Origin: Dictyostelium discoideum
Lineage: Eukaryota
Reading direction: 5' to 3'
DNA: 64,000 nt
Assembly (NCBI GenBank): GCA_000004695.1
Contig: CM000151.3
Span: 6,944,001 to 7,008,000 of the forward strand
The position numbers and the translations under genes were made by a program. The stretch's first letter is position 1. Each line of letters opens with the position of its first letter. Shown here in pieces: positions 24,542 to 42,396 of this stretch. The notes under the pieces were generated by a model that was not told where the DNA came from, did no database searches, and was given only the letters and a program-made list of their open reading frames with translations.

Positions 24542-27500
24542 ATTACCAAGAGATTGGGGTAAAACATTAAAAAGATCTGTAAATAAATTAGTAACAGTAA
24601 GAAGAGATAGTACTGCACAAAGAACATCATCAATTGGTAGTGGACTTGGTGATAGCAATAATAGTAGTAATAGTAGTAATAATAATAATAGTATAGCAAA
24701 ACAAAAATCAACATCATCATCAGCATTATTACAAAAACCACAATATGAAAATAATATACAAATTAGAGAACAAGGACTACTACTACAACTACCACCACCA
24801 CCGCCACCACCACCAATTAAATCATTTGAACATGAAATTGCAAATAAATTAAGATTATCAACACCTGATGATTTAGCATTATCACTTGAGAAATCAACTA
24901 GTAATAATAAATTATCAAAGTCTTCAAATATTAGACCAAAATCATCAACTACAACAACAACCACAACAACCACCAACACAACCAATAATAATAGTGGTAA
25001 TACAACAACGACAACAACGCCACCAACAACACCAAGTAAAAAATCAACAACTAGAAAATCATCACCAACTAAATTAACAACACCAACACCAACACAATTA
25101 CAAACATCTACATCTACATCGACAATAATAAATTTAGAGAATAATAATAATAATGAAGAATTAGAAAGAAGTACATCAATTTTAAGTAGTTTAGTATCAC
25201 TTTCAAAATTAGATTCATCAAATAGTAGTAAGAGTATGGATAATTTAGTGATTGGATCACCAACATTAATTAGAAGGGATATTCATATAACGTGGAATCA
25301 TGTATCTGGTCAATTTGAAGGTGTACCAGATGAATGGCAATCAATGTTACAACCAATAACATCAGAAAAACAAAGAAAAAAGAGAATGGATTTAAGAAAG
25401 AGATTAATTCGTGAAGAATCTTTAAAATGTGATAAAGAGGAGAAATCAAGACAACAAATCCGTGATCGTAGAGAAAGATCAAGGTTATTAAGAATTGAAA
25501 GAAGAAGATCTGTTTATTTATCAAGAACAAATTCAAATAGTTTAACATCACCATCACCAACTGCAATAGCAACATCATCACCTCAACCTTTACCACCACC
25601 ATTTAAATCTTATTCATTACAAAATTTTAGATTATGGCAAATTTCAGGTACAGAATTATTTAAAACTAAAAGAGTTGAAGCATGTTTTGATTCATTATGT
25701 TGTAATGATGTTTTCGTTTTAGATTGTGGTAAAGTTATTTATGTTTGGATCGGTCAAGGTTCATCATTACAAAAGCAAGTTAAAGGTGCTTCAGTTGCAA
25801 ATAAAATTAAATATGAAAATGACTATATCAATGAACCAATTATAATTGAATTTTTAATTGATAATGAAAAATCACCTGAACATACTGAATTTTTTAGAAA
25901 TTTAACAACAACAACAACAAACTCACCATCATCAACAACAACAACATCAACCACATCAAATCAACAACAACCAATTACAATTAATAATGTTTTTACAAAT
26001 AACTTAATAATTAATGAAAAAGTTTTAAAGATTGGACAATCAGATGATCAAATACTTCAAGAAGAAGATTCAGAAGTTACATGGTTATATAGAGTTAATG
26101 ATAATGGTAAAATTAATATGATTGATGAGAAACCATTGGTACCAACACTATTGAATAGTAATACTTGTTTTATTTTAGATTGTGAAACTGATATTTACGT
26201 TTGGCATGGTAAATATTCTCATCCATTGAAACAAAAAGTTGCAGTAATATTTGCAAAAGAATTTTTAAATATCTTCTCACAAAGACCAACTTGGGCATCA
26301 TTACATATAGTTCATCAAGGTGAAGAACAGTGGTTCTTTAAAGAGCATTTCTTATATTGGTTAGAAGATGAATGTTTAATTGATAATTCTAAAAGAAATA
26401 CCCTAACTTTTAGATTAGGTACTTCTTCAAATGGTATCACTGGTAATGGTAATGGTGTCAATATAATTAATAAAGGTATAGGCAGTCATATCAATTTACC
26501 AACACCTATTCCAATTGATTCAAATTTCATGGTATCTGATTTATTCTCAATACCTGATCCATATAATACAAAACCAATTTCATTATCACCATCACCATCA
26601 ACTTCATCAATTTTAAATAATAATAGTAATAATTTTAGTGTAAATAGTAATAGTAGTAGTAGAAGTAGTATTATGTTATTAAATAATAGTAATAATGATA
26701 AAAAACAACATATTTCATTAGATATTTGGAAAGGTGAAGGTGATCAATGGAAGAAACTAACAAAAGATTTATATGGTCATTTTGAAACATCAAAATGTTA
26801 TGTTTGTCATCATGTTTATAAAATTAATGGTAAATTTCAATCAAGAGCTTACTTTTGGCAAGGATGTGAAGCATCCATTAGATGGTGGATCGTATTTCAA
26901 TTTGGTCTTTATAAAGAATTGGGTGAACATATGCAAATGTTAGATTCCTCACCACCACCAACTGAATGTTTAACTCAAAATAAAGAATCTCATGAATTTT
27001 TAAAATTATTTAATAATATTTTCATTCATTATACAACAAGATCAGAATCACATGAAACCAATAATGGCAGTGGTAATAGTATGGCACCATCATCATCATC
27101 ATTATCAATTTCTTCAATGTCTTCAATGGGTTCTGGTGTTTCATCAACTTCTTCAACGACACAACAACTTCAACAACAACAACAACAACAAAATAAACAA
27201 CATCATATTAGTATGTGTGGATTAGGTAGTAATACAAAACAAACACTTTATCAAATTACTTTAATTGCAAATACATTTACAAGATCTGTACAATTTCAAG
27301 AGTTTGATGCATCATGTTTAAATAGTAGAGATATGTTTATATTTCATTCGTTTGCTGCAAAAACTATATTCGTTTGGCATGGTAAAGGATGTAGTAAAGA
27401 GTTGAAATTAATTAGTCAAAATATTGCAAATTCAATATTGACTTATTATCAAAATACTGGTGAAATTTCAAAGAATGAAATGGATTTAGTAATTGATTGT

Positions 27501-28574
27501 CAAGAAGGTCAAGAACCACCAATATTTTGGAAACTTTTCTTATCCCTAACAAATAGTGCTGCTCAAAATGTTACAACAATGCCATTAGAACAAAAAAGAA
27601 ATTTCTATGCTTATGACCCATATTATGATCAACAACAACAACAACAACTCTCAACAATCAATAGTGTTGGTATTAGTGGTGGTGGTAGTAGTAATAATAA
27701 TAATTTAATAATTGAAAATAATAGAATACCACCAAAATTTTATCACATTTTTTATAATATTAAAGTTCGTACTTATGTTGTTACAAAGATTAGTCCATTT
27801 TGTCAAGGTGATCTTTGTGAAGAGGATTCATTCATTTTGGATTGTTTTTATAAGATATTTGTTTGGTTTGGTCCAGATTGTTCAAATAGAAAGAGGGAGA
27901 CCACTAAACAATTGGCAAAACAATATATTGAAGAATCAACCATTGGTCATTCAATTGATTCTACTAAATTGGTATTAATTGAATCTGGTGAAGAGGATGC
28001 AGAATTTAGATCATATTTTCAAGGTTGGTCCTATAATTTCATTTTAACCAATTGGAAAAATAATTCTCAATCTTTAATTGGCGCAGGTGCTGATCATAGA
28101 TTACTAAATTCAATAGTTTCCTATAGTTCAATGTCATCTCAAGTTGATAATATTGGCGGTGTTGAATCTGGTGATGAAGGTGGTGGCTATGGGTATGGTT
28201 ATGGTGGTTATGCTGATTCTAATAGCACAACAACAACAAGTTGTAATACTACAAACAATTCAACTTGTGGTACACCATTATCAAGTTCACCAATGTCTTG
28301 TTCACCTGGTTTTGGTTCATTTAATTTAGCTTCAACAATTATTAATACATCAAATGATGCTAATACTTTATCACAACCTTTAGAATCTTGGGAATTAGAA
28401 TTAGAATCAACCATTAATTCAATTAAAAAGAAACCAATCTTCTCTCCAAAACAACCTTCATCATCATCATCATCATCATCCTCTTCTTCTAATCCATCAA
28501 ATCAACATAAAATTAAAAAATATGATACAATTAAACAAATGTTAGATGAATTCGAACATACTCCAAATAATAAA

Positions 28575-28629
<55 letters not shown>

Positions 28630-29681
28630 TTAATAGTAGTAACTATGCTACCAATTTACCATCAATTACTGAAACTTCACCACCACCAACATTATCAATT
28701 TCTTTACCATCACAGTCTGATAATCAAACAATTTCAGAATTACCATCAATTTGTGATCCATTAGTAAATGAAGAATCAGAGAATAGTACTGGTAGTAGTA
28801 GTGGTAGTATTACAACAACCACCACAACAACTACAACAACTACAAATTTAAAACTACCACCACAATCACCCCCACAACTAATTGTTAATAAGAGAACATC
28901 ACAACATCAACATTTACAAGCACCTCCAAGTCCAAATCTTTCACCAGTTTTAAAGAATAGATTAATTGAACTTGCTCATGTAAATAATGCTAAACATAGA
29001 AAAAGGGGAGCTAGTGAAACAAAGAAATCAAGTCCACTCTTAAAAAGTATTTCAAAGGATAGACCATCAGCAATCGTTATCAATAATGTCACAAGAAATC
29101 ATGGTGGTTCTATAGATGCTAAATCAATGCAAGATTTAAAATTAAATAAAGTTGATATGGAATTAGATTTAGAAGTTATTAAACTTGAAAATGAATTATC
29201 TGTAATTGTTGAAAATATTCAAGATCATTCTCAAACTACTAATATTAAAACTGATAATATTATTAATAATAATAATAATTACAATAACAACAAATTAGAT
29301 ACAAATACTTCAACTACAACTACAACGACAACCGCTTTAGAAAAAATTGAGAGTAATACAAACAACAATGAAAAGATTGATGCTTCATCTGCTGTAGTTG
29401 CCAATACTGCTTGTAATAAACCAATTGAACAACAAGAAATTATTGAAGCACCTATTCAAAGAAAAATTTCAATACCAAATTTACCAATAGGTGCCAATAT
29501 AACACCAACACCAGTTCTAGTTCATACTTTATCATCACAATCAATTGCACCTCAATCACCATCGACAATTAAAAAAGTGGCATTAAAAGTTTCAGTTCCC
29601 GTAAAACCAATTGAAATTCAAAATATTGCTCTTACTACCTCAAATGCTACAATCTCTCAATCACCAAGACAATCAACTGTA

Positions 29682-29765
<84 letters not shown>

Positions 29766-30410
29766 ATAATTACACCAAGAACATCATTCCAACAACAACA
29801 ACAAAATGCTTCATTAGCAAATTCAACTACAACAGCACCAAGTGTACAGAAATTTAAAATTAATACATCAACAATTCCAACAAATAATGGATTAGTTTCA
29901 CCAAGACCTCCATTACCAACAACATCTTCTTCTTCATCATCATCATCATCATCAAGTAGTGCAACCATAAATAATGGGCTAGTTTCACCAAGACCTCCAT
30001 TACCAACATCATCATCAAATAGTTCTACTACAAACAATGGATTAACTTCACCAAGAATTATTACAACACCAAGAATTAATGGAAGTAATCCAAATGTACC
30101 AAAAAATATATCACCTTCTAAATCAAATAATGCCACTACATCCTCATCAACAACAACAACCACCTCATCACCACCACCATTACAAAGAACAAACTCTGTA
30201 AAAGATAGAATTAATCAAGTTGAAAGTATTGTAAAAAGTATATCAGAATCTACTAATAAATTACCACCAAAACCAATTCAAAGATCAGATTCTCAAATAT
30301 CATTCAAATCAACAATAAACACATCCTCAAATCCAATTCCAAAACCAACATTCGTACCTGAACCAATTACTCCAAAATGCGCGCCATCTCCAAAGGCTTT
30401 TATAAGATAA
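23980..30410 (+). CDS. Very large (about 2100 aa) protein with two tandem CRIB/PBD motifs followed by at least five gelsolin-like repeats and a long S/T/N-rich low-complexity C-terminus. It is a putative Rac/Cdc42-effector actin-binding protein. It has 2 exons.
   Basis: Exon 1 is 23980..24423, with a GTAAGT donor. Exon 2 is 24540..30410, with an acceptor after an A-run. CRIB 1 spans the intron: ISSPFGFAHITHVNFDSSNQELT|GLPRDWGKTLKRS. CRIB 2 is IGSPTLIRRDIHITWNHVSGQFEGVPDEWQSMLQ, which matches PAK [34 protein letters not shown]. The gelsolin segments are ..FVLDCGKVIYVWIGQGSS.., ..CFILDCETDIYVWHGKYS.., ..MFIFHSFAAKTIFVWHGKGCS.. and ..SFILDCFYKIFVWFGPDCS... Poly-N tracts are encoded by (AAT)n at 28565-28625 and 29684-29762. 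Confidence 0.8.
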
Positions 30411-33541: not shown

Positions 33542-34818
33542 TTATTTATTTACATTATTTTTATTAAAATTTTCAATTTTCTTTTGTTCTTGTAAAGTTT
33601 TCTTTAATCTTTCTGTACTATTATATTTATTAATGAATGGTTTTAATTCATCTTTGATTGGTACTTCAATAGTTTCACCATGTTTTAAAGAATTTGGTAA
33701 AACATATGGACCATAAGCAACACGAATTAAACGTAAAACTTTAACATTGAAATATTCTAATAATGTTCTAATCTCTCTTTTCTTACCTTCTTGCAATGTT
33801 ATACGTAACCATGTGTTTGAATCGGTTTCACTCTCGACTTGAACACTCACTGGTCTATAGAAAACTTCATTTATAACCATACCTTTTGCAAGACTAAATT
33901 TCATTTCATCTGTAAATTTACCAAATATTCTTACCTTGTAAACACGGAAAAATAAATTCTGTGGTAATGTTAAATATCTTGCCAATTCACCATCATTTGT
34001 AAATAAAATCAATCCCTCTGTATAATAATCTAATCTACCAACTGATATCAAATGATCAATTCCTATAACTTTTCTAATAATTGGTAATAAACAATCTCTA
34101 CCATCTGGATCATATTCTGATGTCAAAACTTGTGGATTCTTAAAATGCATCCAAATTTTTGGTTTATCTACTTTAATCTTTTTTGAAAATTTTAATTAAT
34201 ATTAATATATTAATTAAAAATAAATAGAATAAAATATGAAAAACTTACTGGTTTATCATCAACTGTAATTATATCATGTGGTTTAACTAATATTTCTTCC
34301 ATTTTAATTATTTTACCATTAACTTTAACTCTACCATCTATAATTAATTCTTCAGCTTTTCTTCTTGAAGCAATACCTGCTCTTGCTAAAATCTTTTGAA
34401 TTCTTTCAGTACCGATTTTACCATCTTCTACAAAACCTTCACCTTTTTTAATAAAATCATTTTCTTTAATTTTTTCTGCATCTTTACTCCAAAAACTTAT
34501 TTCTGGATAACCATCTTTTTTCATATCTTTTTCATTTAATTCACCTTGTTTTTTTGCTAATTTTTGTTCTCTAAATTTGTCACGTCTAAGTTTCTTTAAA
34601 TATGACCCAATTTTATCTAATCTTGGTATCTTTTTTGATGTTGAATAATTTAATAATGATGATTGTATTAATGATGATGGTGTTGTTTGATTTATAAATA
34701 AAGATGAAAATGATTGAACATTTTGTTTTAAAATTGTTAATGATAACGATGATGGACCAAGTGGTATATTCGCTTTATATCTTCCTAATATATTAAAACA
34801 ATTATTTAATTTAAACAT
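33542..34818 (-). CDS. RNA pseudouridine synthase of the RsuA/RluB family with an N-terminal S4 RNA-binding domain, likely organellar. It has 2 exons.
   Basis: Exon 1 is 34818..34252 (...RIQKILARAGIASRRKAEELIIDGRVKVNGKIIKMEEILVKPHDIITVDDKP) with a GTAAGT donor. Exon 2 is 34177..33542 (IKVDKPKIWMHFKNPQVLTSEYDPDGRDCLLPII..IGIDHLISVGRLDYYTEGLILFTNDGELARYLTLP...). The catalytic-Asp motif GRLD and the TNDGEL motif are present. Confidence 0.85.
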
Positions 34819-35796: not shown

Positions 35797-36914
35797 ATGG
35801 AGTCATTTACAGAGAAAATGTTTGATTTTCAAAGAAGAGCAACACAAGCAGTACTTCAAAAGATGGGAGCATCAGAAACAACAATTGATGAACAATTTGA
35901 AAATACTCATACAAATTTTAAAAGATTAGGTGAATTTTTAACACATTTAGAGGAATCAACACAATCATCATTAACTCAAATGGAAAAGATGTGTTTTGCA
36001 AATAATCAATTAGCATCATCTTTATGTAATTTCGTATTATCAGAGTTATCAAATGATGACACTGAATTCTCTACAGGTTTATTATCGAAATTCTTTTTAA
36101 AAACTTCAACCAATCCAAACCTATCTCAAATGGAAAACACTAAAGAGTTTGAATTGAGACAATCAAAATTTCAAGAATCAGTTCAAAGATTATACGATAG
36201 TTTCGGTACAATGGGTCATGAAAATATGGCCTCTACTCAAGATGAAATCAATCATAAAATCGTACGTCCAATTAAAAGAGATCAAGATTATAATAAAGTA
36301 ACTAAACAATTAATAGAAAAAAGAAAAAAATTAAATTTAGATTATGATTCAATTAAAAGATCAAAGTAATTATTAATATATATATATATATATACACATA
36401 TTATATATATTAAATTTAATTTATTTCATTTACTAATTATTATTGTTATGTTTTTTTTTTATTTTTTTTTTATAAAAGTGATAATGAAAAAATTAAATTA
36501 GTTAAAGAAGAATTTGATATATTATCAAAGAAAACAGCATCACATCTTCAAAATAGGTCATATGTAAGATGTAAATTAATAGTTCATAGTGTAATCACTA
36601 TGGTACAACAATTTTGTATGTTTTTCGAATCAAACTCTGTACTTTTAGAAGGATTATTAACATTTATAGAACCACTCATTCAAACTTATCAATTAAATAC
36701 CGAGCAATTAACTGATATCTATACAATTAAAAAAACAACAACCCCCACCACCACCACCACTACTACCTCTTCACCTTCATCTTCTTCACCTAGACAACAA
36801 CCATTTAATGGCAGTAATAACAATGGTAATACTCCAACTGGAAAACCGATACCATCTTCACCACCTCCAACTTATAAAGAGCATTTAGATAATAATAATA
36901 GTAATAATAGTAAT

Positions 36915-36950
<36 letters not shown>

Positions 36951-37107
36951 AACCAACAAAGAAATAATAACAATAATAATAATAATAAAAATAATAATAT
37001 GAATGAAAGTCATCAAAATTTAAATGAAGAATTTACACAAAAGGCATCATTTCAAGGATCACCATCAGATTCAAATAGTAGTACAAGTAGTAATAATTAT
37101 TCACCTC

Positions 37108-37172
<65 letters not shown>

Positions 37173-37576
37173 CCACCACCACCAAAGGAAGAGAAATTAT
37201 TTAGCGTTTGGGATGATGATTTAAATGGTAAATCTAATGATGATAATAATACGGCAAGCAATAGTAATAGTAAGAGTAAAAGCAATGATGATGATGATTG
37301 GATGTATAATAATAATAGTAGCGACAATAAACCAAATTTGAGTAGGTCCGATACAACTTGGGAAGATCCTTTAGTACCAGAAAACAGCTCCTATTCAAAA
37401 CCAGCATATTCTTCATTTAATAATACTCCACAACAACCGCAATACTTTAATACACAACCTCAACAACAACAACAACAACAATTTAATAGACAGCCACATC
37501 AACAACAACAACAACAACAACAACAACAGCAACAACCTTTTAACAGACAGCCATCTCAACCATACCAACCACCTCC

Positions 37577-37619
<43 letters not shown>

Positions 37620-38102
37620 AAAAAATCAAGCGGATTTGAAAATATATTTGGTGATTTTGATTTTACCTCTCCTTCACAACAAAGACAGAACCCACAACCG
37701 CCTCAACAACAAAGTAATTATTTTAATAATGGTATGCCACCACAATCATCAGTTTCTCAACATGTTGATAATCACCAACATGAAAGATCAAATGTTGAAC
37801 CTATAGTATCAGAGAAAATAAAAATGTGGGGTGAAAAGGGTGGTAGAAAGAATAATTTAAGAGTTTTATTATCGACACTTCATGAGGTTTTATGGATAGA
37901 AAGTGGTTGGGAAAAAGTAACCTATGGTTCATTGGTTACTCCAATTCAAGTTAAAAAGGTTTATCGTAAGGCAATCATCGTTGTCCATCCTGATAAAGTT
38001 CATAATGGTACAATGGAACAAAAAATGATTGCTCAAAGAATTTTCGAAACTCTTAGAGACCAATTTGAAGTTTTTAAAGTTGATTTAGAACCATCAAATT
38101 AA
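35797..38102 (+). CDS. Protein with an N-terminal arfaptin-homology/BAR domain, a long poly-Q/N linker and a C-terminal auxilin-type J domain. It has 2 exons.
   Basis: Exon 1 is 35797..36365 with donor GTAATT. Exon 2 is 36479..38102. The N-terminus (MESFTEKMFDFQRRATQAVLQKMGASETTIDEQFENTHTNFKRLGEFLTHLEE...CNFVLSELSNDDTEFSTGLLSKFF...|...VRCKLIVHSVITMVQQFCMFFESNSVLLEGLLTFIEPLIQTYQ) looks AH/BAR-like. The C-terminus ([87 protein letters not shown]) closely matches the auxilin/GAK J domain (..[35 protein letters not shown]..). Confidence 0.8.
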
Positions 38103-38380
38103 TTAAAAAATAAAAAAAAAAAAATAAAAAAAAAAAAAGAAAAAAAAAAAGAAATAAAAAAGAAATAAAAATAAAAATAAAAAAATAAAATAAAAACAAT
38201 TAAATTAATAAATGAAAAATAAATAAATACTCTAAGGATCTTTTATTTATTTTAATATATTTATTTATTTGGGAAAAAATGATAAAATGGTTGACCCACT
38301 AAAAGAGAAAAAAGATAATTGTTTAATTTATTTTATTTTTATTACAACAGACTAATTAAAGTTTCATTTAATATTTTAAA

Positions 38381-38745
<365 letters not shown>

Positions 38746-38989
38746 GTTAACCCAGCAATTCAAAATTTTTAAAAAACAATAAAAAAAACATTTCCAAAAA
38801 AAAAAATACAAGATGATTTTAAAATCATCTTATATTTTTTTTTTAAAATTCAAATATTAAAAATGATTATCTTTGTATTTAAATATAAGAACTAATTATT
38901 AAATTTGTTATGAATTAAAATTATTATTATATAAATAATATTTTTGAAAATAGATGTAAAATCTATAATCAAAACAAATAAACTCAAAG

Positions 38990-39025
<36 letters not shown>

Positions 39026-39476
39026 TATTATTATTTTGATAGTAATTAATTAAATAAAAAAAAAATTAAAATATTTTATATGATATTACTTTTATTTGTT
39101 GTTTTTTTTTTTTCTTTCATATTTTGTTTTTTTTTTAAAAAATTTGAAAATTGCGTTTAAAGTTCATAATGGTACAATGGAACTAAAAATGATTGCTCAA
39201 AGAATTTTCGAAACTCTTAGAGAACAATTTGAAGTTGGTTTAAAATCATCAAATTAATAAAAAATAAAAGAAATAAAAAAATAAAAAAACAAATAAAAAA
39301 GAAATAAAAATAAAAAAATAAAATAAAAACAATTAAATTAATTAATGAAAATAAATAAATACTCTAAGGATCTTTTATTTATTTTAATATATTTATTTAT
39401 TTGGGAAAAAATGATAAAATGGTTGACCCACAAAAAGAGAAAAATGATAATTGTTTAATTTATTATTATTTTATTT

Positions 39477-39839
39477 TTATTTTGGCACATCGAATTTTTT
39501 TTCAATTTTTTTACCAACTATATTTCCTCCTACACAAGAAGAAATAGCAGCAATGACTGAAGTTTTACTAGCAACTAATAAAGTGCCAGTTGCACCAATT
39601 GATTGAGCAGTTGCAACTATCGCACTACCCGACCCTAATGCTGAAGCGATGGATGCAGCTGCACTACCAGCCGCAATACCACCTGACGTGAAACCTACAT
39701 ACGAAACTAACAATGGTGCACCTCCAAAGCAAACTCCACCAATCACAAGAGTACTAGCGATGACTGGGTGCTCTTTTGAAAATTGAACTACTTTTCCACT
39801 AACTTTTTTTATAAAACCATTATTATTTTCCCCATCCAT
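39477..39839 (-). CDS. IFI6/IFI27 (ISG12, pfam Ifi-6-16) family small Gly/Ala-rich membrane protein. It has a single exon and lies inside duplicate unit B.
   Basis: The sequence is MDGENNNGFIKKVSGKVVQFSKEHPVIASTLVIGGVCFGGAPLLVSYVGFTSGGIAAGSAAASIASALGSGSAIVATAQSIGATGTLLVASKTSVIAAISSCVGGNIVGKKIEKKFDVPK. The GFTS(A/G)GIAAGS..A..QS(L/I)GATG core is the signature of this family. Confidence 0.75.
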   Translation of the reverse strand: MDGENNNGFIKKVSGKVVQFSKEHPVIASTLVIGGVCFGGAPLLVSYVGFTSGGIAAGSAAASIASALGSGSAIVATAQSIGATGTLLVASKTSVIAAISSCVGGNIVGKKIEKKFDVPK

Positions 39840-40335
39840 TTTTAAAAAGAGAATTAAAAGTTGTGATGATTTTGTGAAAAAAATAAAAAAAAAAAAATAA
39901 AAAAATTAAAAATCGCACAAAAATTTTTTATTTTGGTTAATCTTTTTCTCGAAATCAAAATTTTTTAAAAAATAATTTTTTAAAAATTTAATAAAAAAAC
40001 ATTTCAAAATAATTATATTTAAATACAAAGATAAGAACTAATTATTAAATTTGTTATGAGTTATAATTATAATATTTTGATTAGAAAAAGTTTTTTTGAA
40101 AATAGATGTAAAATTATTAACCAAAACAAATAAACTAAAAGAAATTTTTTTTTTTTTTTTTTTTATTGACAATTATTTTATTAGTAAATAAAAAAAATAA
40201 TAATAAATTTATTATATGATATTACATTTATTTGTTGTTTTTTTTTTTTTTGTTTTATATTTTTTTTTTTTATTTTATTTTTTATTTTTTTTTTAAAATC
40301 TATACTTTTTTTTTTAAAAAATTTGAAAATTGCGT

Positions 40336-42396
40336 TTAAAGTTCATCATGGTTTGGCATATCTTCACCAGCGCCATTTGGGGAACCACCAGCAGCACCAT
40401 ATAATTTAGAGAAGATTGGTTGAACGATCTTTTCAAGGATTTTGTATTGTTCATCAAATTCTTCTTTTTCGGCAGAGGAGTTAACATCCAACCAAGAAAG
40501 GGCATCAGAGATAGCGGTTTCAATGGTTTCTTTATCATCTGATTCGATTTTACCACCGATCTTATCTTTATCACCAATGGTGTTTTTAATTTGATAGATG
40601 TAATTTTCCAAGGTATTCTTGGCTTCGACACGTTCTTTGGCAGCTTTATCTTCATCAGCGGCATCGGCAGCTTCTTTGACCATACGATCGATATCGGCTT
40701 GTGAGAGACGTTCCTTATCGTTGGTAATGGTGATGGATTCTTTAGAACCAGAAGCTTTATCTTCAGCTGATACATGTAAAATACCATTGACATCCATTTC
40801 AAAGGTGACTTCAATTTGTGGGACACCTCTTTGAGCTGGTGGGATACCAGAGAGATCAAATTTACCCAAGAGATTGTTATCTTTGGTCATTGAACGTTCA
40901 CCTTCATAGATTTGAATGGAGACACGATCTTGATTATCTTGATAGGTTGAGAAAACTTGTGATTTCTTGGTTGGAACAAATGTACCTCTTGGGATTAAGG
41001 CAGTCATAACTCCACCAACGGTTTCAATACCGAGGGTGAGTGGGGCGATATCTAAGAGTACGAGAGTGTCAGTACCTTCTTCATTGGTGAAAATACCACC
41101 TTGAACGGCAGCACCATAGGCTACAGCCTCATCTGGATGAACACCACGATTTGGTTCTTTACCATTGAAAAAATCTTTTAAGAGTTGTTGAATCTTTGGA
41201 ATACGAGTTGAACCACCAACTAAAACTACTTCGTGGATTTGTGATTTCTTGAATTTGGCATCTTCTAATACCTTCTTTACTGGGTCTAAAGTCTTTTTGA
41301 AGAGATCCATATTGAGTTCTTCAAATTTGGCTCTGGTGAGGGTTTCAATGAGATCTTTACCATCAAAGAAGTTTTCAATCTCTAATTGGGTTTGTGGAGA
41401 GGTTGAGAGAATACGCTTGGCATTTTCAGCAGCTCTTCTTAATTTTTGGAGTGATTTCTTATCTTTTGAGGCATCTTTACCAGTCTTCTTTTGGAAAACG
41501 GTTAAGAAATGTTTCATAACACGTTGATCGAAATCTTCACCACCTAAATGAGTGTCACCATTGGTTGAACGAACTTCAAATACACCATCTTCAATGGATA
41601 AAACTGAAACATCAAATGTACCACCACCTAAATCGTAAACCAAGATATTCTTTTCCTTATCACCAGTGGCATCGAAACCATAGGCTAATGCTGCTGCGGT
41701 TGGTTCATTAATAACACGTAAAACTTCAAGACCTGCAATAACACCTGCATCCTTTGTGGCTGCACGTTGTGCATCATTGAAATAAGCTGGACATGTTACA
41801 ACGGCGTGAGTTACTGTCTTACCAAGGGATGCTTCGGCAATTTCCTTCATTCTACCAAGGATCATTGCTGAGATTTCTTCTGGTGAGTAAGTCTTTTCTT
41901 CACCTTTAACTTTAACTACAACGTATGGTTTATTATTTTTTGAAACAATTTTATATGGTAATAATTTCATATCTCTTTGAACTTCTTCATCATCAAATCT
42001 AAAAAAAAAAAAAATAAATAAAAAAATAATTAGTTATATATTTAAAAAAAAAAAAATAAATAAAAAATAATTAATTAATTACCTTCTACCAATTAAACGT
42101 TTAATATCAAAAATTGTATTTTCTGGGTTGAGAGTTGCTTGATTCTTTGCAGCTTCACCAATGAGACGTTCAGTTTCAGTGAATGCAACATATGATGGAG
42201 TAATACGATTACCTTGATCATTTGGAATAATTTCAACTTTACCTTTCTTGAAGACACCAACACATGAATAGGTAGTACCTAAATCAATACCAATAACACT
42301 TCCATAATCTTTCTTTTCTTCTTCTTTCTTTTCAGCTGCTGCTGCAAAAGAAATTAATAATAATAAACATAATAATGCGTAAATGGATTTATTCAT
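40336..42396 (-). CDS. grp78: ER-luminal Hsp70 chaperone BiP/GRP78, with a signal peptide and a C-terminal HDEL. It has 2 exons.
   Basis: Exon 1 is 42396..42083 ([49 protein letters not shown]...[12 protein letters not shown]) with donor GTAATT. Exon 2 is 41998..40336 ([28 protein letters not shown]...[11 protein letters not shown]...[10 protein letters not shown]). Hsp70 signatures are present throughout. Confidence 0.95.

Follow-up and report, generated by a model that had tools for sequence, protein, structure and literature searches.

We analysed a 64,000-nucleotide stretch of the Dictyostelium discoideum genome (assembly GCA_000004695.1, contig CM000151.3, positions 6,944,001 to 7,008,000 of the forward strand; the whole stretch is called the window below), and in particular a gene within it whose product almost certainly consists of an N-BAR domain, a disordered linker and an auxilin-type J domain. 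Positions are counted from the first nucleotide of the window, and all parts of the gene lie on its plus strand. The full coding span, 35797-38102, runs from the ATG at 35797 to the TAA stop at 38100-38102, so that the limits named in a preliminary description of this DNA are the exact start and stop of the gene. Two forward open reading frames (ORFs) are found at the locus, 35797-36369 (190 amino acids) and 36600-38102 (500 amino acids). From the list of ORFs and a splice model, exon 1 was placed at 35797..36365 (codons 1-189 and two bases of codon 190), where it codes for the predicted N-terminal amphipathic helix and for BAR helices 1 and 2. Exon 2, at 36479..38102, codes for BAR helix 3, the disordered linker and the J domain, and ends with the TAA stop. 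The 113-nucleotide intron between them (36366..36478; GTAATT...AAAAG, with GT..AG ends) is in phase 2 and has a GC content of 7%, versus 27% and 31% in the flanking exons. Removal of the intron gives a single reading frame of 2193 nucleotides with a product of 730 amino acids; no entry identical to this exact 730-residue protein was found in the protein collection looked up.

The two ORFs are, as read from the sequence, exons of one gene and not two genes, because the intron splits the BAR domain and has canonical ends and phase, the junction is collinear with that of orthologues, and orthologues have a single ORF. Indeed, the Pfam BAR match spans the splice junction at residue 189/190, and BAR helix 3, located with an AlphaFold2 model of the Polysphondylium violaceum orthologue as a guide, falls wholly within the coding sequence of exon 2. 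The spliced junction (...DYDSIKRS-N-DNEKIKLVKEEF...) aligns with orthologues collinearly, without insertions or deletions. BAR and J domains are present in one ORF in the transcriptome-assembled orthologues of Ceratiomyxa, Phalansterium and Cavostelium, and the Mastigamoeba mRNA model likewise has a single ORF with both. Gene calls of the metagenome style list the 190-amino-acid ORF as a 'protein' by itself, but their source contigs are genomic and keep the intron. We rejected as extremely improbable that a truncated BAR protein and a polyQ-J protein are encoded here by separate genes, or that the gene model is mis-joined, since the stop codon immediately after exon 1 and the calling of the 190-amino-acid ORF alone by prokaryote-style gene callers are outweighed by the position of BAR helix 3 and of profile positions up to 225 of 234 in exon 2, by an AT-rich GT..AG intron in the correct phase, by the collinear junction, and by the presence of both domains within transcriptome ORFs of Ceratiomyxa, Phalansterium and Mastigamoeba. 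The fusion of the BAR and auxilin-type J domains in one gene, as proposed in the preliminary description, thus holds. Evidence for two distinct genes had been named there as grounds for dropping the proposal, and on this point the outcome favours it.

Domain organization of the protein

The N-terminus is, by sequence and by predicted fold, a member of the N-BAR family. Its BAR domain, of the amphiphysin/BIN type, covers residues 13-246 (35833..36647, with the intron inside) and was recognised by Pfam, by a profile search of PDB and by Foldseek. With the N-terminal 275 amino acids as the query, PF03114 (Pfam BAR) scored 38.6 bits, above its gathering cut-off of 28.5 (E-value 1.2e-9), with a match of residues 13-246 to profile positions 6-225 of 234. 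A single-sequence phmmer search of PDB with the N-terminal region found human amphiphysin, BIN1, Drosophila amphiphysin and BIN2, while a 12-member family profile gave BIN1 (E-value 1.3e-14) and amphiphysin (2.1e-14), with endophilin behind. For the BAR fold, we modelled this domain of the P. violaceum orthologue (70-74% identity in the region) with AlphaFold2 (predicted local distance difference test score, pLDDT, 86.6; predicted template modelling score, pTM, 0.70). The model has three long helices (30-84, 111-186 and 192-260) and, in front of them, a short N-terminal helix (4-22) followed by a loop. When it was compared with PDB by Foldseek, 50 out of the 50 listed matches belonged to the BAR superfamily, the first being Drosophila amphiphysin (1uru). 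The preliminary description had seen an arfaptin-homology (AH)/BAR module in this region, and had set the profile scoring of the N-terminus beforehand as the test on which that view could fail. The region scores as BAR in both profile and fold searches, but the arfaptin/AH subtype has to be given up in favour of an amphiphysin/BIN-type N-BAR. The arfaptin family PF06456 gave no match in the Pfam scan at E-values up to 10, arfaptin and PICK1 were absent from the phmmer and profile searches of PDB, as was ICA69 from the profile search, and neither arfaptin nor PICK1 was among the 50 listed Foldseek matches; we therefore rejected this subtype.

Residues 1-22 (35797..35862) are predicted to form an amphipathic helix, H0, as suggested by the P. 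violaceum model, the hydrophobic moment and the alignment. In the model the putative H0 (4-22), which is separated by the loop from helix 1, has a lower confidence (pLDDT of about 64), and residues 1-18 have a hydrophobic moment of about 0.5 with a net charge of only 0 to +3. The orthologues of P. violaceum and Synstelium have the same N-terminal sequence, MESFTEKMFDFQRR, and RATQAVLQKMGASETTIDEQFE aligns with a 22-residue stretch of amphiphysin. The basic cluster EKRKKL (174-179) aligns to EKRNRK of Drosophila amphiphysin, of which K137 and R140 are said to be required for membrane binding (reportedly shown by Peter and colleagues in 2004). K175, K178 and K199 are the retained counterparts of K137, R140 and K161 of the Drosophila protein, positions reported in the same work to have a role in membrane binding. 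The protein shares with amphiphysin and BIN proteins the H0/helix-1 signature Q-x-VLQK-x-G-x-A-x-x-T-x-DE-x-F and the basic cluster EKRxxK, and by both sequence and fold its N-terminal 250 amino acids match amphiphysin, BIN1, BIN2 and Rvs167 best. Unlike those proteins, the D. discoideum protein has a Q/N-rich middle part with no CLAP or proline-rich region, and carries a J domain at the C-terminus, where the Pfam scan of the protein found no SH3 domain; lacking SH3, it is not an amphiphysin.

The J domain occupies residues 633-723 (37806..38078), with the HPD codons at 37986-37994. It is of the auxilin subtype and has an intact HPD, the core feature of the auxilin family. A phmmer search of PDB with the C-terminal 115 amino acids found bovine auxilin (1xi5/1nz6) with an E-value of about 5e-19 and Arabidopsis JAC1 (3ag7) with 5.5e-16, whereas generic DnaJ domains reached just E-values above 0.007. 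HPD occupies residues 693-695, and the stretch QVKKVYRKA is the same in auxilin. The Pfam DnaJ profile scored 19.4 bits, under its threshold of 27.8, as was also the case in most relatives scanned. Across 63 J-domain relatives W, HPD, A and F are invariant. In Pfam scans of the full protein and of its halves BAR and DnaJ were the only domains recognised, and a PTEN-like/C2 module was not found. The expectation of an auxilin/GAK-type J domain with an HPD over the last 90 or so residues was therefore correct, as was that of a Q/N-rich low-complexity linker between the two domains.

This linker, residues 276-615 (340 amino acids; 36735..37754), is rich in Q, N, S and P (88 Q, 52 N, 45 S and 36 P, or 26% Q and 15% N) and, on its composition, disordered. 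A single-sequence AlphaFold model of the Cavenderia protein, of low confidence (pLDDT 41) and discarded, had no predicted secondary structure in the linker. In other lineages the linker is P/A/S-rich, unlike the Q/N-rich one of D. discoideum; since its composition varies by lineage, the composition may be regarded as lineage filler. Just 22 alignment columns outside low complexity are conserved in the linkers of the five dictyostelids that we compared. They include several short motifs. SPPPTYK (36858..36878), kept in 5/5 dictyostelids, contains a PPxY motif and is a candidate WW-domain ligand, as PPxY motifs are. KLFSVWDDD (37194..37220), also kept in 5/5, is clathrin-box-like; it departs from the canonical L-phi-x-phi-[DE] box and resembles a stretched version of the boxes of its relatives. 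The acidic-tryptophan motif DDDDWMY (37287..37307) is kept in 5/5, with EEWMM in Synstelium, and an SPHVD island immediately before the J domain is shared by the five dictyostelids. IFGDFDF (37644..37664), kept in 4/5, contains an FG[DG]F motif that fits gamma-adaptin-ear (GAE) ligands, and FGGFD is found in two relatives. We rejected FGDF as an FxDxF motif because of a register mismatch; a G3BP-type reading of it is possible. The consensus of GAE ligands is reportedly aromatic-G-[PDE]-aromatic/L/M, as given by Mattera and colleagues in 2004. Among known GAE-domain ligands are DFGGF of p56 and FGxLV of rabaptin-5, and GAK interacts with the GAE domain of GGA1 (PMC13581114). Linkers of non-dictyostelid orthologues contain the clathrin boxes LFDID, LLSFD, LFSLD, LFSFD and LFDFD, plus DLL/DLF and DPF motifs.

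Distribution among Amoebozoa and beyond

Full-length counterparts were found by a word-index search in Cavenderia fasciculata and Heterostelium album. We also searched 1.84 billion representatives exhaustively with HMMER, using a profile that did not include approximately the first 90 BAR residues. This gave 2483 matches, nearly all of them auxilin-type J domains, and when the best 150 of the 2483 were scanned with custom BAR and J profiles, 24 matched BAR and more than 20 of these also had the J domain. This search added Polysphondylium violaceum and Synstelium polycarpum to the dictyostelids with both domains. Dictyostelium purpureum, Tieghemostelium lacteum and one more sequence came from a word-index search with the full-length profile, which was swamped by low-complexity words and returned dictyostelids only. 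Altogether the BAR and J architecture is present in seven other dictyostelids.

The preliminary description had proposed to look for the same architecture in other Amoebozoa, and it was indeed found there, in Ceratiomyxa fruticulosa, Mastigamoeba balamuthi, Pelomyxa schiedti, Phalansterium solitarium and Cavostelium apophysatum. Clastostelium recurvatum gave a fragment with the BAR domain only, and Protostelium nocturnum and Planoprotostelium fungivorum have more divergent relatives. Outside Amoebozoa, both domains were found in the red alga Galdieria partita and, more weakly, in Rhodelphis marinus. The C-terminus of the Galdieria protein is an auxilin/JAC1-type J domain, and its BAR domain is recognisably similar in the first helix only. 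Pfam BAR was independently above threshold for the proteins of Ceratiomyxa, Mastigamoeba and Galdieria. The Galdieria BAR protein found by the fold search (PDB 3caz) is not the orthologue of this BAR-J protein.

In the 63 close J-domain relatives of at least 440 amino acids, BAR was the commonest recognised partner (7/63), TPR/UBA, DIX and MORN were rare, and PTEN, C2 and kinase domains were absent. Given its spread across dictyostelids and other Amoebozoa, the BAR-J fusion is old and conserved in this amoebozoan lineage. The BAR-auxilin fusion is the rule in one major amoebozoan lineage and no peculiarity of this genome. The architecture had been called unusual, which remains true in comparison with animal, yeast and plant auxilins but not within the amoebozoan lineage.

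Several features of individual relatives were noted. Automatic annotations are inconsistent across species, the names given being 'DNAJ heat shock N-terminal domain-containing protein', 'auxilin-like', 'cyclin-G-associated kinase' and 'BAR domain-containing protein'. The Mastigamoeba and Pelomyxa BAR-J proteins and three relatives end, after the J domain, in G[DN]VD or DDVD. These tails, which the dictyostelid proteins do not have, recall the EEVD tails of Hsp70 and Hsp90 that bind TPR co-chaperones. In the J domains of the Protostelium and Planoprotostelium proteins HPD is replaced by HSD and HED, respectively, so that these proteins may not activate Hsp70; the Planoprotostelium relative also has N-terminal MORN repeats and is annotated as GAK. 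The Synstelium polycarpum model (1530 amino acids) continues after the J domain into a long ubiquitin-specific-protease-like region, probably because the gene caller fused two genes.

Gene identity and earlier work

The gene is very probably DDB_G0276447, as this identifier adjoins that of Grp78, DDB_G0276445 in D. discoideum (PMC6025073), and both DDB_G0276447 and the product of our gene are BAR proteins. In a genome-wide search for D. discoideum BAR proteins by Buckley et al. (2020), nine uncharacterised ones were tagged with green fluorescent protein (GFP) (PMC7416115). The GFP fusion of DDB_G0276447 labelled small intracellular vesicles and not plasma-membrane puncta, the latter being seen with three other Dictyostelium BAR proteins in the same screen (PMC7416115). 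We found no publication that discusses the J domain of this protein, its auxilin nature or a BAR-auxilin architecture. The gene has already been annotated and once imaged in a screen, while the nature of its product as a BAR-bearing auxilin and its spread in Amoebozoa appear to be undescribed.

A possible role in clathrin uncoating

We consider it rather probable that the protein is a clathrin-uncoating cofactor of Dictyostelia and their amoebozoan relatives. Recruitment of Hsc70 for uncoating at curved membranes, which the preliminary description had put forward, is a reasonable reading of the predicted domains. In such a mechanism, the dimeric BAR domain, via its N-terminal amphipathic helix and the conserved basic cluster, would bind strongly curved acidic membrane, at a bud neck or on a newly pinched vesicle. 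The motifs of the linker would supply coincidence detection of the coat, KLFSVW for clathrin and FGDF for the AP-1 gamma-ear or GGA. The HPD of the J domain would then stimulate the Hsc70 ATPase beside the lattice, leading to removal of the coat from the budded vesicle, and the dimeric molecule would carry two J domains. The intracellular GFP pattern and the FGDF motif suggest that internal vesicles (of the AP-1/GGA type) or post-scission vesicles are favoured over open pits.

The order of parts is that of animal auxilin (DNAJC6) and GAK (auxilin-2), in which a membrane module is followed by a motif-bearing disordered linker and by a C-terminal J domain of the same subtype. The N-terminal PTEN-like domain of the animal proteins is a membrane sensor thought to time their recruitment after scission. 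The BAR domain would take over the job of this domain by reading curvature. Unlike auxilin and GAK, the D. discoideum protein has an amphiphysin-type N-BAR in place of the PTEN-like phosphatase/C2 module, has no kinase domain, and lacks canonical DLL, DPF and clathrin-box motifs in its linker; it would also be a dimer that reads curvature and charge, not a specific phosphoinositide. Like yeast Swa2/Aux1, plant AUXILIN-LIKE1/2 and JAC1, it has a C-terminal auxilin-type J domain and no PTEN-like domain. Swa2 and the plant auxilins are not known to have a folded membrane-binding domain or a BAR domain; Swa2 has UBA and TPR domains, and JAC1 functions in chloroplast positioning. Partner domains like the TPR and UBA of Swa2 do occur among the close J-domain relatives of our protein.

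A number of points weigh against a role in uncoating, or against the data on which we base it. An auxilin-type J domain is no guarantee of a clathrin role, as plant JAC1, which has one, acts in chloroplast movement. The motif scan of the D. discoideum linker found no canonical clathrin box, DLL/DLF, DPF, NPF or FxDxF, so that clathrin binding is unsupported by sequence in this species. The structural model is that of the P. violaceum orthologue, as a monomer. Logan contigs with exon 1 keep the intron and, being genomic, are uninformative on splicing; they provide no transcript support for this locus. A word-index search with the J domain alone as the query returned only fragments of at most 200 amino acids, mostly plant auxilin-related, and is uninformative on a second auxilin-like protein in dictyostelids. 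The literature yielded no clathrin colocalisation, knockout or biochemistry for this protein, and we infer its identity with DDB_G0276447, to which the imaging refers.

The best of the alternatives, though unlikely in our opinion, is that the protein recruits Hsc70 at tubular endosomal or trans-Golgi network membranes, as a single-chain counterpart of RME-8 and SNX1 that remodels clathrin or sorting microdomains. RME-8 (DNAJC13), a J protein, and SNX1, a BAR protein, control clathrin via Hsc70 on the curved endosomal membrane. Such a role would agree with the intracellular localisation and absence of plasma-membrane puncta, with the preference of BAR domains for tubules, and with the fit of FGDF to ligands of AP-1/GGA ears. 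It would not explain, however, why the J domain belongs to the auxilin subtype in particular, which that of RME-8 does not, or why orthologue linkers abound in the clathrin-box, DLL and DPF motifs that uncoating and assembly factors typically carry; the BAR domain is, moreover, of the amphiphysin type and without a PX domain, whereas SNX1 is a PX-BAR protein. RME-8 and SNX1 are also two proteins, and here both activities would be on one chain.

It is also possible, with a distinctly lower probability, that we deal with an amphiphysin/Rvs167-like neck or scission protein, on which Hsc70 dismantles the BAR scaffold or its partners and not the clathrin lattice. The absence of an SH3 domain and of any proline-rich dynamin-binding logic speaks against this, even though the nearest BAR relatives are amphiphysin, BIN1 and BIN2 and the J domain is placed C-terminally, where amphiphysins carry SH3. 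Puncta at the plasma membrane were formed by three other Dictyostelium BAR proteins, not by this one, and we know of no precedent for Hsc70-driven disassembly of a BAR coat.

Even less weight can be given to the idea that the J domain, as in JAC1, has its function in a pathway without clathrin, its resemblance to auxilin being at the domain level only. JAC1 is nearly as close to it as auxilin (E-value of 5.5e-16 versus 5e-19) and the D. discoideum linker has no canonical clathrin motif, but clathrin and adaptor motifs are abundant in the orthologous linkers, and conservation beside a membrane-curvature module fits vesicle traffic.

If the protein is indeed an uncoating cofactor, it would supply Dictyostelium clathrin biology with its missing uncoating factor, and would be a single-chain case of the cooperation between J proteins and BAR proteins that otherwise takes place between separate proteins, such as RME-8 and SNX1. 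It would also bear on the question of what keeps auxilin off growing pits and then brings it in, in a burst, as soon as the vesicle has been released. In animals this is ascribed to the PTEN-like domain and to phosphoinositide turnover, but the auxilins of yeast and plants do not have that domain. An N-BAR domain in the same position of the protein, conserved across a major amoebozoan lineage, amounts to a domain swap that is ready for experiments, in a haploid model organism with easy genetics and imaging. We tentatively suggest, as a conjecture that may well prove wrong, that in this lineage, which includes Dictyostelia, Ceratiomyxa, Archamoebae and Variosea, the arrival of the uncoating cofactor could be timed by curvature sensing through a dimeric N-BAR domain and not by phosphoinositide conversion through a PTEN-like domain. 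If this were true, the pairing of BAR and auxilin-type J domains in Galdieria, and possibly in Rhodelphis, would mean that the solution is very old or has arisen more than once.

Sequences around the gene

The window has an extremely high AT content and abundant poly-Q/N, and its coding islands have a GC content of about 27-35%, features characteristic of dictyostelid genomes. Upstream of the gene, a two-ORF gene with S4 and pseudouridine synthase domains, probably with an intron, is found on the minus strand (33542-34818), and a protein of 1724 amino acids with a CRIB/PBD motif and four gelsolin repeats is encoded on the plus strand (25236-30410).

Directly downstream, a segment of about 1.15 kb is duplicated in tandem, such that 37994-38343 corresponds to 39158-39475 and 38857-39015 to 40003-40167. 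Copy 2 holds a fragment of the J-domain tail (39158-39257; 32 residues) that has neither a promoter nor an HPD. This fragment is 97% identical over 79 nucleotides and has a deletion of 9 nucleotides; the copy of the 3' flank that comes after it is 83% identical. Between the duplicated blocks, copy 1 contains an (ATT)n microsatellite of about 370 nucleotides (38370-38740), and copy 2 contains a 120-amino-acid ORF of the interferon-induced 6-16 family on the minus strand (39477-39839; PF06140, 36.4 bits). One copy of this small 6-16-family gene may have been replaced or lost. Further downstream, at 40336-41970 on the minus strand, lies the gene of an HDEL-ended Hsp70 (Grp78/BiP), 2.2 kb from the J-protein gene and on the opposite strand to it. 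As BiP is a protein of the lumen of the endoplasmic reticulum, this proximity is probably a coincidence.

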